From a virus, in IMG/VR virus record IMGVR_UViG_3300037470_001029, positions 1-64,000 of that record: a DNA stretch of 64,000 nucleotides. One strand, written 5' to 3'. Positions 54,402 to 60,949 of this stretch are shown in pieces; position 1 is the stretch's first letter; each line of letters opens with the position of its first letter. A program made the position numbers and the translations under genes. The notes under the pieces are model-generated. The model was not told where the DNA came from. It saw only the letters and a list, made by a program, of their open reading frames with translations, and searched no databases.

Positions 54402-54607
54402 GCAAGTACGCCGATCTTAAAGTAGGCCAGCAGATCTGGATCCGGGCCCGCGTCAGCGGGCTCTTCAAGCCAGGCACGATGGGCCACCGCGAGGGCCTGC
54501 TCACCGCAGAGATAATCTCCGGCAGCCAGATCCAGGGAGATCAGACGGTCACGGCGCAAGCGCGAGGCGTGCGAGACGAGTATTTCGAGAAGGTGACAGG
54601 CGAATGA
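54398..54607 (+). CDS. hypothetical protein
   Basis: Coupled on both sides. Confidence 0.5.
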   Translation: MSKYADLKVGQQIWIRARVSGLFKPGTMGHREGLLTAEIISGSQIQGDQTVTAQARGVRDEYFEKVTGE

Positions 54608-56577
54608 GAGCTCCGGAAGTCACCACTATCGATTTCGAGACCGAGGCCATAGAGAAGCGGCCGTCCTACCCGCCGGTGCCCGTCGGCGTCGCGATCAAGG
54701 AGCATGGGCAGAAGCCCTTTTACATGGCGTGGGGACACCCTTCGGGGAACAACTGCTCGAAGGCCGACGCGCGCCGCGCGCTGCTGAAGATCTGGAAGGA
54801 CCCGCGCGGGAAGCTCTTCCACAACGAGAAGTTCGACGTCGACGTCGGCGAGGCGCACATGGGCCTGCCGCGCCTGCCGTGGGGCTCCTACCACGACACC
54901 ATGTTCCTGGCCTTCCTAGATGACCCCGACCGGCCGAACGTGAAGCTGAAGGACGTCGGCGAGGAGGTGCTAGGCAAGGTGCCGAAGGAGCGCGACGCGC
55001 TGCGCGACTGGATCCTGGCCAGCGTGCCGGGAGCGACGCGCAAGGAGTGGGCGGCCCACATCAGCAAGGCGCCCGGAGGGCTGGTAGGAAAGTACGCGGG
55101 CCAGGGAGACGCGGAGACCACGGCCAGGCTGTTCGCCAGGCTCTACCCGCAGGTACTCGCCCGCGGAATGGGTCTCGCATACGACCGCGAGCGCCGCTGC
55201 ACCCCCGGTCTAATGGATTCTGAGCGCCGCGGCATACGCGTCGACGTCAAGAAGATGGAAAAGGAGGCGCCGTTCTACGAGGCGCTCCTCGAGCGAGCCG
55301 ACGCGCTTCTCCGCAAGATACTCAAGAGCCCGGGCCTGGACCTCGACAAGAACGAGCAGGTTGCCGATGCCATGGACAAGGCTGGAGTCGTCGACTCGTG
55401 GACGCTGACTCCAGGAGGCAAGCGGGCCACCAACAAGAAGGTCCTGCTCAACGCGGTCAACAACAAGAAGCTGCTGGCGCTGCTCTTCTACCGCAACGCG
55501 CTCGCGACGTCGATCAGGACGTTCATGCGGCCGTGGCTCGCGACGGCGCACGAGGGCGGGGGCGGCCGGATCTTCACGTCCTGGAACCAGGTCAGGCAGG
55601 CCGATCGCGGCAATCCGTTCGGGGCGCGCACCGGGCGCCTCTCGTCGTCTCCGAACTTCCAGAATATCCCCATCTACACGCGTTCGATCCTGATCCTGCC
55701 GAAGCTCATCGAGTCCGGCTACATGGACAAGCTCGTCGACGCTGAGATGATAAAGAGATTTCCGTGGATCAGGCAGGAGTCGTTCGCCATAGAGATGGCC
55801 GACAAGACGAAGCGCACGATCGGACACGCCTGCCCGCTGCCGATGATGAAGGGCTACGTCTTGCCGGAGAAGGGCCACGTGCTCGTCGAGCGCGACTACT
55901 CGCAGCAGGAGTTCCGCATCCTGGCGCACTTCGAGGACGGGGCGCTGCTGCAGGCCTACCGCGAGAACCCCCGCATGGACGTCCACGACGCGGCGCGCGA
56001 CCTGATACACGACATCCTCGGAATCATGCTCGACCGCCGGCCGGTGAAGGACGTCGGCTTCTCTCTCATCTACGGCATGGGCCTCGCGGAGCTGGCGCGC
56101 AAGACCGAGGTGGACCTGGAGCAGGCCAAGAGCTTCAAGGGCGCGTACCTGCAGGCCATGCCCGGGCTCAAAGACCTCATAAAGGGGCTAAAGGAGTGCG
56201 CCGCGGCAAAGCAGCCGATCACCACGTGGGGAGGGCGACAGTACTACTGCGAGAAGCCGCGCATCGTCAAGGGCAGGCTCAGGACCTTCGAGTACAAGCT
56301 CATCAACCGGCTCGTGCAGGGCAGCGCCGCCGACTGCACGAAAGAAGGGAACGCGCGTTACGACGAGCTAGGGGAAGAGGGGCGCCGCGGCGGCCTCTTC
56401 ATGATGACCGTGCACGACTCGACCGTCTCGTCCGTCCCGAAGGAGTGCTGGAGGGAGGCTGACGCGGCGCTCAAGGGCGCGATGGAGTCAGTGGAGTTCG
56501 ACGTCCCCATGCTGACGGACGGGAAGGTCGGCACGAAAAACCTCGGCAACCTTGCGAAGATAAAGGATGCCGCTTGA
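54604..56577 (+). CDS. polA: family A DNA polymerase with 3'-5' exonuclease
   Basis: IDFET, HNEKFD, TGRLSSSPNFQNIP, DYSQQEFR, KDVGFSLIYG, QGSAAD, VHDS. Confidence 0.95.
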   Translation: MRAPEVTTIDFETEAIEKRPSYPPVPVGVAIKEHGQKPFYMAWGHPSGNNCSKADARRALLKIWKDPRGKLFHNEKFDVDVGEAHMGLPRLPWGSYHDTMFLAFLDDPDRPNVKLKDVGEEVLGKVPKERDALRDWILASVPGATRKEWAAHISKAPGGLVGKYAGQGDAETTARLFARLYPQVLARGMGLAYDRERRCTPGLMDSERRGIRVDVKKMEKEAPFYEALLERADALLRKILKSPGLDLDKNEQVADAMDKAGVVDSWTLTPGGKRATNKKVLLNAVNNKKLLALLFYRNALATSIRTFMRPWLATAHEGGGGRIFTSWNQVRQADRGNPFGARTGRLSSSPNFQNIPIYTRSILILPKLIESGYMDKLVDAEMIKRFPWIRQESFAIEMADKTKRTIGHACPLPMMKGYVLPEKGHVLVERDYSQQEFRILAHFEDGALLQAYRENPRMDVHDAARDLIHDILGIMLDRRPVKDVGFSLIYGMGLAELARKTEVDLEQAKSFKGAYLQAMPGLKDLIKGLKECAAAKQPITTWGGRQYYCEKPRIVKGRLRTFEYKLINRLVQGSAADCTKEGNARYDELGEEGRRGGLFMMTVHDSTVSSVPKECWREADAALKGAMESVEFDVPMLTDGKVGTKNLGNLAKIKDAA

Positions 56578-57066: not shown

Positions 57067-57822
57067 ATGCCCACCAAGGCCAAGGCCGCTCTGCTCAGGT
57101 TCACCGCGTGGAGCTGGTCGCGCTTCAACGACCACCGCCGCTGCGCATTCTACGCGTTCTGCAAGTACCTGCGTAAGCTGCCGGAGCCGGGCTCGCCGGC
57201 GATGGACCGCGGCGGCGCGATCCACAAGCTCGCGGAGGACTGGACGCTCGGCAAAGGCGACAAGCTGCCGCCGGAGCTCAAGCTCTTCAAGACGGAATTC
57301 GCGCACCTTCGCAAGATCAAGGCTAATGTCGAGGGCCAGATCGCCGTCGACCGCATGTGGAAGCCGACCGACTGGTTCGGCAAGGACGCCTGGCTCCGCG
57401 TCGTCACCGACGCGCGCTACGAAGAGAACCCGAAGGACGGAAAAGTAGTTTCCGCGATCGACCACAAGACCGGCAAGATCTACGAGGAGAACGACGAGCA
57501 ACTCTCGCTTTACATCCCGGCGCTCTTCTCGCATTACCCGCGCGCCGACGAGATCAACCTGAAGCTCTACTACCTCGACCAAGGCGAGGAGCGCCTGTAC
57601 CGCTACCGCCGCGAGGGCATCGCCAGGCCGCGCGAGCTGCCGCCCGCCAGGAAGGGCGGCGCGCCGGTCGTCGAGAAGGCGCCCTCGCACGTAGCGCTCA
57701 TGAAGATCTGGACAGAGAAGTCCTACCCGATCCTGACCGACAGGCAGTTCGTCGCGACGCCGAACGACAAGTGCCGCTTCTGCCACTACAGGAAGTCGAA
57801 CGGCGGCCCTTGCCGATACTAG
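57067..57822 (+). CDS. PD-(D/E)xK exonuclease (RecB/Cas4-like)
   Basis: WSWS...C...RG--IH...DHKTGK...QL-LY...CRFC...C. Confidence 0.85.
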   Translation: MPTKAKAALLRFTAWSWSRFNDHRRCAFYAFCKYLRKLPEPGSPAMDRGGAIHKLAEDWTLGKGDKLPPELKLFKTEFAHLRKIKANVEGQIAVDRMWKPTDWFGKDAWLRVVTDARYEENPKDGKVVSAIDHKTGKIYEENDEQLSLYIPALFSHYPRADEINLKLYYLDQGEERLYRYRREGIARPRELPPARKGGAPVVEKAPSHVALMKIWTEKSYPILTDRQFVATPNDKCRFCHYRKSNGGPCRY

Positions 57823-57831
57823 GAGGCCTGA

Positions 57832-58368
57832 ATGAGAGACATCATGATAGACCTGGAGACGATGGGGACGCGGGCAGGCTGCGCCCTGGTCTCCATCGGC
57901 GCGGTCGCGTTCGGACCCAAGGGCCTTGGAGAGGAATTCTACGAGGTGGTAAATTCGGCATCTTGCAAGGGGCTCTTCGTCGACGTAGACACGGCCGCCT
58001 GGTGGTCAAAGCAGTCGCAAGAGGCCCGCGAGGTACTGCGGCTCGCATCGCGCAAGGCCAGCAGCCTTCCTCTCCCGAAAGCGCTCTGGAAGTTCCGCGC
58101 CTACGTCCGCGGCGTCAGCGTCGACGCGAGGGTATGGGGCAACGGAGCCGACTTCGACCTGCCGATACTGGCGGCGGCCTACGCGTCGATAGGAGAGGAC
58201 GCTCCCTGGCCGCCGTTCAACGGCCGCTGCTACCGCACGCTGAAAGGCCTGGCCCGCGAGGTCAAGCTAGAACGCGGCGGCACGCACCACAATGCGCTGG
58301 ACGACGCCAAGACGCAGGCCTTGCACCTTATCAAAATATTGAAGAAGCTAAAACTGGAGGTAACATGA
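57832..58368 (+). CDS. DEDDh 3'-5' exo(ribo)nuclease
   Basis: MIDLET, WGNGADFD, HNALDDA. Confidence 0.88.
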   Translation: MRDIMIDLETMGTRAGCALVSIGAVAFGPKGLGEEFYEVVNSASCKGLFVDVDTAAWWSKQSQEAREVLRLASRKASSLPLPKALWKFRAYVRGVSVDARVWGNGADFDLPILAAAYASIGEDAPWPPFNGRCYRTLKGLAREVKLERGGTHHNALDDAKTQALHLIKILKKLKLEVT

Positions 58369-58775
58369 GGAAGGCCGCAAAAAATGCGCCGGGATTTTCT
58401 CGCGCCAAGGGGAAGCCGCTGAAGAGGCCGCGGCGCATCAATCGGACGGAGGCCTCGGTGGAAGGCGCCTGCTGCCGCTACCTGAAGAAGCTCGGGCTCG
58501 TGCACCGCAAGATGAACGGGTTCGGCTTCAACGCCTGGCCCGACAGGATGATCCTGCCGCCGAACATGGGCGCTCCCTGGAGCAAGAACAGCGTCCACGG
58601 GCATGTTCTGTGGGTAGAGCTGAAGAGGCCGCTCGAAGATCCGACTCCGCTGCAGGCCAAGCTGCACGACGACCTGCGATGCAGCGGCCAGGAAGTCTGC
58701 GTCGTCCGCTCGGTGGAAGAATTCAAAGAGGTGGTGAATGCGTTCCACAGAAAATACTGCCCGATCGATATTTAA
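58365..58775 (+). CDS. VRR-NUC domain nuclease
   Basis: Start ATG 58365; EASVE...WPDR...WVELKRP...TPLQ. Confidence 0.85.
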   Translation: MRKAAKNAPGFSRAKGKPLKRPRRINRTEASVEGACCRYLKKLGLVHRKMNGFGFNAWPDRMILPPNMGAPWSKNSVHGHVLWVELKRPLEDPTPLQAKLHDDLRCSGQEVCVVRSVEEFKEVVNAFHRKYCPIDI

Positions 58776-59216
58776 ATGAGCAGATCTCCAGCTCATTGCG
58801 CTTACCAGGCAAAGCTAGAGAAAAAGGGTTTGCGCGAATGCCCTAAATGCAAGAAGATCAAAAAGCTGAGATACTTTGGCCGACATTCGCAAACCAACAA
58901 TGGTCTTTGCTGGTGTCTTAAGTGTAATCGCGCAGCGTCTATTGGATGGCATAGGAAAATCAAGGCAGAGGTCTTTGCGCATTACGGCAGCAAGTGCCGC
59001 AAATGCGGAGAGTCGGATATAGATGTCCTGACCATAGATCACATCGATCAAAAGGGCTCGGTGCACAAAAGAAGCCTGAGTTTGACAAGTGGTAGCAAAA
59101 TGTGGAGGTGGCTCCGCGAAAATAATTATCCAAAAGGCTTCAGGCTGCTATGCTTTAATTGCAACGTCAAAGAGTACCGAAAGTTCCTCTACCGTAAAGA
59201 GAAGGAAATGATATGA
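58776..59216 (+). CDS. HNH-type endonuclease (AT-rich, likely mobile)
   Basis: CPKC, CLKC, CRKC...TIDHI...LCFNCN. Confidence 0.75.
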   Translation: MSRSPAHCAYQAKLEKKGLRECPKCKKIKKLRYFGRHSQTNNGLCWCLKCNRAASIGWHRKIKAEVFAHYGSKCRKCGESDIDVLTIDHIDQKGSVHKRSLSLTSGSKMWRWLRENNYPKGFRLLCFNCNVKEYRKFLYRKEKEMI

Positions 59217-60707
59217 AAGGAGTCGAGCCCTTCCGGGTTGAGGCTCAGGCCTGGGTTCCGGTCCCGTTCATGCTGCGCGCCATGCGCTTCATGCTTGAAC
59301 GCGGCGCGGCTGGCCTGCTCCTTGACCCGGGCTAGTTGAGGCATGCGCAAGACCTCCATCAGCCTGGCGGTGATGAAGATCCTGAAGAAGAACCACCGCC
59401 GCTTCCCGTTCCTGGTGATCGCGCCGCTGCGCGTCTGCCAGCTCGTGTGGCCCAAGGAGCTGAAGAAGTGGAAGGAGTTCTCCGGACTCACGATGGAGAT
59501 ACTGCACGGCCCGAAGAAGGGCGAGGCACTGCGCAGGAAGGCCGACATCTACGTGATAAACCCGGAGGGCCTCGACTGGCTCTTCGAGGAGCTTCGCGGC
59601 ATCAACGGCTGGCCGTTCGAGGGACTGCTCGTCGACGAGTCGACCAAGTTCAAGCGCGCGTCGTCGCTGCGCTCGCGGCTGCTGCGCGGCTACCTGCCGA
59701 TGTTCAGGCGCCGCTACATACTCACGGGCAGCCCGTCGCCCAACGGGCTCATCGACCTCTTCGGGCAGATACTGGTGCTGGACCTCGGCAATGCGCTCGG
59801 CCGCTACGTCACGCACTACCGCCGCGATTACTTCTTCCCTATGGAAGGCCGCTGGATACCCGAGGAGGGCGCGGAGGAGAAGATCTACAAGCGCCTCCGC
59901 CCGCTCGTCGTGCACATGGACGCGGCAGACTACATCAAGCTGCCGCCGCTGATCGGCGACATCACGAGCGACGAGCCGCTCATCACCGAGGTCGAGCTCC
60001 CGCCCGCTGCGCGCAAGATCTACGACGACATGGAGGAGAGCCTCATCGCGATGGTGGACAAGGGCGTGGTCACCGCGGCGAACGCGGCCGTGGCGATGAT
60101 GAAGTGCCGCCAGATCGCCAACGGCGGCATCTACAACGACCCCGAGCGCAAGAGCTGGAGCAAGATACACGACGCAAAGACCGACGCGGTGCTGGAGCTG
60201 GTGGAGTCCCTGCAAGGACAGCCGCTGCTCGTCGCGATCGACTTCAGGCACGACGAGGACAGGCTCTTGCGCGCGCTCCCGCCGGGCACGCCCTCGTTCT
60301 CCGGAGGAAAGTCGCTCAAGGAAGCGCAGCGCATCGAGGCCGCGTGGAACGCCGGCGACCTGCCCGTGCTGCTCGGCAACCCGCAGTCCGTCGCGTGGGG
60401 GCTAAACCTGCAGGAGCACGGACGCGCGGTCGCGTGGCACTCGCAGACCTGGGATTGGGAGCAATACATGCAGTTCATCCGCCGCGTCTGGCGCAGCGGG
60501 CAGAAGGGCCGCGTGTTCGTCCACCACATCGTCGCGCGGCACACGGTGGACAGGCCCATGCTCTCCGCCGTGAAGCGCAAAGGCAAGGACGAGGGCGCGC
60601 TGCTGCACGCGCTGCGCGAGTACGCGGAGGAGAAGCTCGGGCGCCGAGTCAAGGCGCAAAAGAAGAAGGGCGCCGGAGCGCCCTTCAAGGGTCGTGCGAA
60701 GCGCTAG
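59213..60707 (+). CDS. SNF2-family helicase, interrupted by 10 nt inside Walker A
   Basis: 59213-59332 encodes ...GLLLDPG, then TAG; 59343 on encodes MRKT...VDEST...LTGSP...GLNLQ...RRVWRSGQ. Confidence 0.85.
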
Positions 60708-60949
60708 CCCACCGTGTAATCTGGGTGGCCCTTGCTCGCGAGGTAGGCGCACCATCCCTTGTAGCGTGCCTCGTACGCGCTCCCCGCGGAGCCGTGCCAG
60801 TAGAACTTGTCCGGCCCGTGGAACTCCCAGTGGTCCCTGTCGAAGTGGTAGGTCCAGGTCTCCTTGCGCTGCGCCGCGGTCGTGTACTCGCGGACCTCGG
60901 GCATCACCTGCGCGAGCAGCGCGCGTCCGAAGTCGGAATCGAGGCTCAC
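60704..60949 (-). CDS. hypothetical protein
   Basis: 81 aa, aromatic-rich; coupled to upstream gene. Confidence 0.6.
   Translation of the reverse strand: MSLDSDFGRALLAQVMPEVREYTTAAQRKETWTYHFDRDHWEFHGPDKFYWHGSAGSAYEARYKGWCAYLASKGHPDYTVG

Follow-up and report, generated by a model that had tools for sequence, protein, structure and literature searches.

To our knowledge, natural programmed translational bypassing has been documented in very few systems, namely phage T4 gene 60 and its homologues, the byps of yeast mitochondria, and a candidate in the Streptomyces phage phiHau3. Here we describe a SNF2-type helicase gene of an uncultured virus whose Walker A (motif I) coding sequence is broken by a 10-base gap. 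The gene lies in the 64,000-nucleotide stretch (hereafter, the window; 64 kb) that spans positions 1 to 64,000 of IMG/VR record IMGVR_UViG_3300037470_001029, a 72,037-base record rated complete by CheckV. With moderate confidence, we read the gap as a programmed translational bypass of short span that is associated with a homing-endonuclease cassette. The observations that carry this reading are the anatomy of the gap, the recurrence of similar inserts at the same codon boundary in six other metagenomic helicase genes, the association of interrupted helicases with HNH endonuclease genes, and purifying selection on one interrupted pair.

The T4 gene 60/MobA element was reportedly described by Bonocora et al. 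in 2011 and the terminase inserts of phiHau3 by Smith et al. in 2013, while Weiss et al. reportedly observed, in 1987, low-level spontaneous +5/+6 hops over stop codons in E. coli. The byps of Magnusiomyces capitatus are many short, mobile, non-coding inserts of 27–55 nt with matched take-off and landing codons. In T4, the take-off and landing pairs of the gene 60/MobA element include GGU/GGC, UAG or UGA follows the take-off codon, and the bypassed insert protects against nicking by MobA (bioRxiv 10.1101/2022.08.31.505936). For the 10-nt bypass in the phiHau3 terminase, Antonov et al. (2023) report a junction peptide detected by mass spectrometry in E. coli, which indicates that a 10-nt hop is mechanistically possible; the same paper cites the M. 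capitatus mitochondrial byps (PMC10732093).

In the window, the helicase is encoded on the plus strand by two open reading frames (ORFs). ORF1 (59213..59332; translation MKGVEPFRVEAQAWVPVPFMLRAMRFMLERGAAGLLLDPG) comprises 40 codons, runs through the motif I glycine with the ending ...GAAGLLLDPG, and stops at TAG 59333-35. ORF2 (59343..60707; 454 aa, beginning MRKTSISLAV...) picks up at the M-R-K-T of motif I and contains the SNF2-type ATPase core. The two are separated by the 10-base gap TAGTTGAGGC (59333..59342, plus strand), which is missing from relatives. The putative take-off codon, GGC (Gly40, 59330..59332), is abutted by the in-frame TAG (59333..59335), and an identical GGC, the putative landing codon, forms the last three bases of the gap (59340..59342). 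A Shine-Dalgarno-like purine run, GAGG (59338..59341), with a presumed role in landing, overlaps the landing codon rather than lying ~6 nt upstream of it. Relative to ORF1, ORF2 is shifted to the +1 frame, and at no point are both frames open: a TGA in the ORF2 frame (59337..59339) bars a simple +1 frameshift, so a single frameshift cannot join ORF1 to ORF2. The first-pass annotation, made from the letters of the window, had placed GGC 59330-32, TAG 59333-35, GGC 59340-42 and ATG 59343-45, with the ORFs in different frames, and this anatomy proved exact. ORF2 matches the Pfam family SNF2-rel_dom (E 6.1e-12; 45.7 bits, cut-off 24.9) and phrog_62 "DNA helicase" (E 1.2e-107), and its Helicase_C match (20.6 bits) falls just below the cut-off of 23.5. 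By these profile matches, ORF2 is assigned as a SNF2-type SF2 helicase and predicted to be the phage replication helicase.

The window thus holds matched take-off and landing codons, a stop in the A site, a barred frameshift, and a skip that restores a conserved protein. We propose that a ribosome with peptidyl-tRNA-Gly on GGC 59330-32 would dwell while a slowly decoded UAG occupies its A site. The peptidyl-tRNA would then unpair, the mRNA would slide by 10 bases, and the same tRNA would re-pair with GGC 59340-42, possibly aided by pairing of AGG or GAGG to 16S rRNA. Decoding would restart at AUG 59343 and produce the helicase as one full-length chain that has the native ...LLLDPG-MRKTS... loop. 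By analogy with T4 MobA and gene 60, the gap most likely splits an HNH recognition sequence within the conserved motif I DNA; with this site split, the carrier genome would be protected from the nuclease that it encodes, and the hop would keep the helicase working. The hop itself, the efficiency at which it would proceed, and the immunity role are inferred from sequence comparison.

Viewed against T4 gene 60/MobA, the likeness is extensive. Both have a glycine take-off codon followed by UAG or UGA, a landing codon for the same tRNA, a purine-rich stretch close to the landing codon that resembles a Shine-Dalgarno sequence, a take-off point ~40–46 codons into the ORF, and an HNH homing-endonuclease gene directly upstream; in both, the insert falls within coding sequence that is highly conserved, and in T4 its presence there prevents self-nicking. 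The differences are equally clear. The T4 gap is 50 nt (20 nt in one clade), compared with 5–10 nt in the helicases; T4 has a take-off stem-loop, whereas no significant one was found in the window; and the T4 host gene encodes a topoisomerase subunit (Topo2L), whereas here the host sequence is motif I of a SNF2-type helicase. The helicase AGG overlaps the landing codon, whereas the T4 element lies 6 nt upstream. The HNH families also differ from MobA, being of the phrog_2255 type in the window and HNH_3 plus NUMOD3 at three of the other interrupted loci (L207, L208, and L159). The arrangement in the window appears to work like T4 gene 60/MobA without being a member of that element family: host gene, HNH families, and length of the gap all differ, and no large structure was found.

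The E. coli hops of Weiss et al. are similar in that the peptidyl-tRNA reportedly pairs anew with a matching codon only a few bases beyond a stop, which would cover even the 5-base gap of L107, the shortest helicase case. Those hops were reportedly synthetic and inefficient, whereas the helicase arrangement is natural, recurrent, and under selection. The byps are reported to differ in being longer, in belonging to mitochondrial translation, in having an unassigned A-site codon instead of a stop, and in lacking a homing endonuclease. The phiHau3 terminase is close in scale. Its two 10-nt inserts lie in an essential phage enzyme and an internal Shine-Dalgarno-like signal has been proposed for it, which makes the comparison with short actinophage bypasses drawn in the first-pass annotation a correct one (PMC10732093). 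There, the A-site trigger is a rare UUA, proposed to act as a host growth-phase sensor, whereas the window has UAG; the text of the paper does not mention an HNH gene, and the gene and host clade differ from those of the window (PMC10732093).

Comparison with uninterrupted relatives defines the size of the gap. ORF1 aligns to residues 5–44 of the uninterrupted protein P0004 (26/40 identical, E 1e-14) and ORF2 to its residues 44–480 (74% identical), so that both tile one helicase. Among the closest database proteins to ORF2 (P0004, 74%; P0005, 73%; P0006 and P0007, 70%), the motif reads LFLDPGLRKTSITLA, and motif I of uninterrupted P0010 reads EPGMRKSS. The MRKT continuation is therefore native to the subfamily and the surplus in the window is exactly 10 bases. 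Annotated phage homologues, 46–48% identical, are single ORFs with ...LLLDPGLGKS/T.... Deleting 59333-59342 yields DPG-MRKT, the family sequence, with zero residues gained or lost; relatives reading DPGLRKT or EPGMRKS bear out the earlier proposal that a 10-nt skip rebuilds LDPGMRKT. The second glycine of the Walker A motif is Arg in the window (59346-59348; G-[LM]-R-K-T), a departure from canonical G-x-G-K-T. The same Arg occurs in uninterrupted P0004–P0007, P0009, P0010, P0015, and P0047 and at loci L036, L054, L055, L060, and L066, which marks it as a trait of the subfamily and not as damage. An Arg-bearing P-loop is unusual for an SF2 ATPase.

Reads also back the insert. A Logan contig from run X1 (71,475 nt, depth 13) has 0 differences from the window over 58700-60800; X1 is probably the source sample, so the match speaks to read support and not to confirmation from an independent sample. 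The read support for the 10 nt that the first-pass annotation had singled out is thus provided by a second assembler with an identical insert at depth 13.

Across metagenomes, the insert belongs to a class. In six other helicase genes, the same codon boundary is interrupted by an insert of 5, 9 or 10 bases: L101, L107, and L159 emerged from unbiased homologue searches, and L207, L208, and L219 were retrieved with a pattern that required TAG after DPG (3 true among 14 loci). The window, with take-off GGC and gap TAGTTGAGGC, would resume at ATG CGC AAG. L208 (take-off GGT) and L219 (GGC) share the gap TAGTGAAGGT and would both resume at TTA GGA AAA. The remaining genes read GGC, TGAGTAGGC, CTA GGT AAA (L159); GGA, TAGTCAGGC, GCA GGA AAA (L207); GGT, TGAATAGGC, TTA GGG AAG (L101); and GGC, TAGGC, ATG GGA AAA (L107). 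All seven have a Gly take-off codon abutted by a stop (5 TAG, 2 TGA), a GGY landing codon as the last three bases of the insert, and an A directly ahead of it (AGG), and in all seven removal of the insert restores D-P-G-x-[G/R]-K-T. In six of the seven, take-off and landing codons are readable by one tRNA-Gly. When L107 is aligned with L081 and L101 with L056, in each case the closest sister without an interruption, the inserts stand out as clean additions of 5 and 9 bases, respectively. A spacing screen over all fetched loci, preceded by tblastn, measured the distance from the Gly codon to the Lys codon at 160 motif matches: 150 had the canonical 6 bases, 6 were interrupted (11, 15 or 16 bases), and 4 lacked an upstream PG. 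The pattern used skips the window itself, where Arg precedes Lys.

The shortest case, L107:26-162, has the arrangement GGC TAG GC ATG, where the G of the stop is also part of the landing GGC. Relative to its sister L081 (80% identical in the helicase tree), roughly 53% of aligned columns are alike upstream of the gap compared with 86% downstream, as judged by eye, and the L107 gap may be the 3' edge of a replaced, cassette-borne segment.

The truncated N-terminal product also recurs. A profile of 30 N-terminal pieces, compared with 5.8 billion proteins and restricted to short matches (20–76 aa), retrieved 30 proteins, of which 26 (38–53 aa) end exactly in ...DPG. Several of the 26 lie on 25–62 kb contigs, one occurs on 39 contigs, and one on 14; the set includes ORF1 of the window and of L219, the two for which the gap DNA was read. 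ORF1 is 40–43 aa long in 23 of 27 interrupted genes. Two gene calls, P0008 (442 aa, 61% identical to ORF2, on a 61 kb contig), which starts past motif I, and P0027 (427 aa), which starts right at it (MNGLGKT), are probably further interrupted helicases.

The interrupted genes do not form one clade. In a FastTree phylogeny of 114 helicases (97% non-redundant), the seven interrupted genes require at least 6 state changes, 5 of them forced by well-supported branches, and every interrupted gene has uninterrupted close kin. Shuffled labels did about as well (56/500), which indicates that interruption is scattered over the tree and not clustered.

Interruption coincides with an upstream HNH gene. 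In the window, the HNH gene (58776..59216, plus strand; 146 aa) ends in a stop that overlaps the helicase start (ATGA). Its product matches phrog_2255 "HNH endonuclease" (E 2.8e-11), and its Pfam HNH match (E 0.026) is below the cut-off. Its G+C content is 0.45–0.48, compared with 0.62–0.69 in the flanks. This foreign base composition and a sporadic presence between conserved neighbors are the marks of a homing endonuclease, and the 146-aa protein is the probable homing endonuclease of the cassette. All five interrupted loci with upstream DNA have an HNH gene directly upstream, compared with 2 of 92 uninterrupted loci (Fisher p = 3e-7); L107 and L101 were excluded because the contig edge intervenes. 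The uninterrupted set comprised the 92 loci with at least 1.1 kb of upstream sequence, at which the ORF ending 40–400 bases ahead of the Gly codon was classed. The usual upstream ORFs there encode PD-(D/E)XK proteins (23), exonucleases (14), or VRR-NUC proteins (7), and the two HNH-positive loci are L111 (adjacent) and L069 (353 bases off). At L208, L207, and L159, proteins with HNH_3 and NUMOD3 domains abut or overlap ORF1. The presence of two different HNH families at one place suggests convergence or cassette exchange.

Two loci show the HNH gene and the gap apart. At L219:1191-1701, the HNH_3-type gene is split into three frames, as traced by tblastn pieces, whereas neither the 10-base insert nor either half of the helicase is damaged; here the gap outlives its endonuclease. 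The HNH_3 gene at L111:2042-2509 (E 1.2e-16) immediately precedes a helicase gene that is not interrupted and encodes IEPGLGKTG as motif I; immunity at L111, if any, would rest on sequence divergence and not on a gap.

The pair L208 and L219 allowed selection to be gauged after acquisition of the insert. Their inserts are identical at 10/10 bases, and the insert is therefore older than their split. For ORF2 of this pair, dN is 0.099 and dS 1.65 (dN/dS 0.06), and for ORF1 dN/dS is 0.17, values that come from an author-written Nei-Gojobori script, with dS near saturation. Both halves appear to have been kept under strong purifying selection since the insert was gained. Between L208, where the gene lies on the minus strand, and L219, about 25 bases on each side of the insert are identical except for the take-off wobble base; set against an ORF2 dS of 1.65, this identity points to nucleotide-level constraint beyond coding, either a recoding signal or a nuclease site. 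In the stretch upstream of the gap that is open in both frames, the pair differs by 1 residue in the ORF1 frame compared with 3 in the ORF2 frame, so this overlap codes in the ORF1 frame. L159 and L207 provide a complementary view: from the stop to the motif I Lys-Thr there is no ATG, GTG, or TTG, and the first start codon lies past the motif, so that separate initiation cannot yield an ATPase there. Taken together, recurrence, the 26/30 DPG endings, selection on L208/L219, and the start codons of L159/L207 support the programmed hop from GGC 59330-32 to GGC 59340-42 proposed in the first-pass annotation.

Candidate stimulatory signals were sought around the take-off site and within the nascent chain. 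Nearly all interrupted ORF1s (25/27), compared with 6/97 uninterrupted N-termini, have an N-terminal [RW][VI]-x(4-8)-[WFY] motif located 26–33 residues before take-off; in the window it corresponds to codons 7–14, FRVEAQAW (59231..59254, plus strand). The motif could be a nascent-peptide signal or merely reflect shared cassette ancestry. The N-terminal ...RVEK/ERVK...W extension that typifies interrupted genes is also present in uninterrupted L057 and L023, which have no recognizable HNH gene upstream; the two may once have carried a gap and lost it, or may be precursors. A second feature of the ORF1 start is the encoding of M-K-G by ATGAAAGGAG in the window (59213-59230), L107 (26-43), P0149, and P0153. 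This sequence, within the first ORF1 codons, is a perfect Shine-Dalgarno-like string.

Several observations weigh against a programmed hop. The N-terminal motif was chosen post hoc, after looking at the data. The predicted 11-bp stem with 4 G-U pairs at 59307..59338 (plus strand), whose 3' arm contains the take-off codon and the stop, is not significant: the fold of 59300-59375 has a minimum free energy of -29.4 kcal/mol, no better than shuffled sequences (-30.2 +/- 3.7; z = 0.22). Nor was a stem-loop common to the seven cases seen when their folds were compared by eye, and the weak hairpin that the first-pass annotation had drawn around the take-off codon finds no backing in either result. 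Pairing between GGC and its anticodon is strong and should disfavor take-off. L207 combines a GGA take-off codon with a GGC landing codon, which one standard tRNA does not read. The seven cases are not fully independent, as L208 and L219 share an insert and four have homologous HNH genes. The remaining difficulties each lend themselves to a different explanation. The 10-mer of the window is known only from this phage, and it is lacking in the four closest protein relatives (70–74%) and in the X2 contig described below. Both the window and L107 have ATG as the resume codon, though Leu is usual in the family, and a start codon there would also suit termination followed by reinitiation. Three of the inserts are 9 bases long and in frame, for which stop-codon readthrough is an alternative.

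The first of these difficulties could mean that the gene is dead, that is, that the window records a recent inactivating 10-base insertion, for example from imprecise repair after HNH cleavage, in a helicase that is dispensable or decaying. The singleton 10-mer and nearest relatives without an insert leave room for a recent defect in this genome. Run X2, from another study, contains a 4,677-nt contig, ~81% identical to the window, that lacks exactly 10 bases (gaps of 1+3+5+1 at 59326-59339) and has C in place of A at 59343, giving Leu; by this alignment the nearest known relative appears to be an uninterrupted form. Viral and metagenome scans for close relatives found best relatives at 52–54%. 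Interrupted forms were likewise not found in cultured phages, where a tblastn search of 50,697 GenBank phage records with a typical ORF1 (P0131) gave 4 records, all uninterrupted, nor in genome_contigs, where an ORF1 profile search gave 5 loci, all uninterrupted. Repair could also have made GGC...GGC as a 3-base duplication. Against decay, ORF2 is intact over 454 codons and keeps all columns that are invariant in an 8-sequence alignment, the same site and grammar recur across scattered lineages, and the L208/L219 pair shows strong purifying selection after the insert (dN/dS 0.06). Moreover, a random 10-mer gives a stop right after Gly in 3/64 and a GGY end in 2/64. We regard a dead gene or homing scar as unlikely. 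The first-pass annotation had held that a private insertion or a lack of conservation in related phages would speak against the hop: the window's own 10-mer is indeed confined to this phage and its nearest relatives lack an insert, whereas the class of insert is not private and recurs at the same codon in six other helicase genes. As a side observation, X2 also contains three 151-base pieces identical to the window (58749-59039, 60521-60671) at depth 2, none of those listed spanning the gap, and the window's own phage may be present in X2 at low abundance.

The second difficulty would fit a split gene, in which the 40-aa ORF1 peptide and ORF2 are made separately, with termination at TAG 59333-35 and reinitiation 7 bases on at ATG 59343, and in which the pieces associate or ORF2 acts alone. 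An ATG past the gap in the window and L107, where the family usually has Leu, agrees with this, as do stop-to-start distances of 7 bases (window) and 2 bases (L107) that fit translational coupling; in L208 and L219, the ORF2 frame offers an ATG 11 codons upstream. However, L159 and L207 have no start codon of any kind between the stop and the Walker A Lys-Thr, and the L208/L219 overlap evolves as coding sequence of the ORF1 frame (1 vs 3 amino acid changes). A split gene predicts neither the GGY ahead of the resume codon (7/7) nor the stop right after Gly (7/7). It would also place a chain break inside the P-loop, leave ORF2 alone without the first beta-strand, and depend on a GAGG 1 base from the ATG, too near for a normal ribosome-binding site. 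We therefore consider separate synthesis of the two pieces quite unlikely.

The gap could be neutralized by another route, through RNA excision or editing, a minority of insert-free DNA, or readthrough of the in-frame 9-base inserts. Contigs drop rare variants, so minor insert-free DNA would go unseen; no RNA sample is among the runs listed as matching the window, and 3/7 inserts are in frame. We know of no mechanism for excising 5–10 nt from bacterial mRNA, which counts against RNA-level removal. Readthrough would be useless for 5- and 10-base gaps and would insert three residues into the P-loop at the others, and the window encodes no tRNA, hence no suppressor tRNA. Together, these routes seem very unlikely. 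Reassignment of TAG or a suppressor tRNA was rejected for the window on the same absence of a tRNA gene, and the 10-base gap alters the frame in any case. Simple frameshifting is ruled out in the window by TGA 59337-39; a -1 shift in L107 and a +1 shift in L208/L219 are formally open and would put 2–3 extra residues into the P-loop. Finally, an assembly or sequencing artefact is extremely improbable: the sequence is a metagenomic assembly and run X1, the one run that contains it at full length, is probably where it came from, but an independent assembler gave the identical sequence at word depth 13, and independent assemblies of other collections contain comparable inserts at this codon.

Upstream of the HNH gene, the window encodes a family A DNA polymerase (54604-56577), a PD-(D/E)XK nuclease (57067-57822), and an Rv2179c-like exonuclease (57832-58368). 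The ORF at 58365-58772 was left unnamed, as it has no Pfam match and its likeness to the VRR-NUC ORF of L208 is weak (E 0.007, one comparison). Among pattern searches, the junction 19-mer matched viral_contigs at L015:5053-5071 and L016:1112-1130, exact matches of about 19–20 bases that we attribute to chance; L015 and L016 hold the same unrelated ORF, open through the match in another frame. The strict pattern GGCTAG...GCATG...AARAC returned 3 loci without a helicase break. For the DPG-stop pattern, the TAA version gave 4 loci, none a helicase, and the TGA version gave 16, whose sole helicase, L234, is on the contig of L159.

Returning to the programmed bypass, a broader reading can be put forward tentatively: HNH cassettes of several unrelated families may carry a portable minimal hop module, planted in the most conserved codons of phage helicases and giving immunity to self-cleavage without loss of the enzyme. 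Speculatively, and with equally limited confidence, the module would run from a stop codon through 0–4 filler bases and an A to a second Gly codon, and might include an N-terminal extension of ~14 residues that acts as a nascent-chain signal. A literature search found no paper on bypass gaps in helicase Walker A motifs, and "translational bypass" combined with "SNF2" gave none, most subscription journals being outside the search.

The finding has practical consequences for annotation, as gene callers split such helicases into a ~41-aa "hypothetical protein" and a truncated helicase, and lose Walker A entirely where there is no nearby start codon. If the hop is real, the compact cassette of ~130 nt would be directly testable in a reporter, and a recurrent 5–10-base version in another gene, tied to other HNH families and apparently free of a large RNA structure, would reveal truly minimal signals for ribosome hopping. 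It would also support the view that bypass elements evolve as immunity devices of homing endonucleases. Should the portable-module reading be true as well, gaps of 5–10 nt would be the shortest natural programmed bypasses, operating without large mRNA structure, and bypassing would be a common modular device of phage selfish DNA instead of a T4 curiosity.

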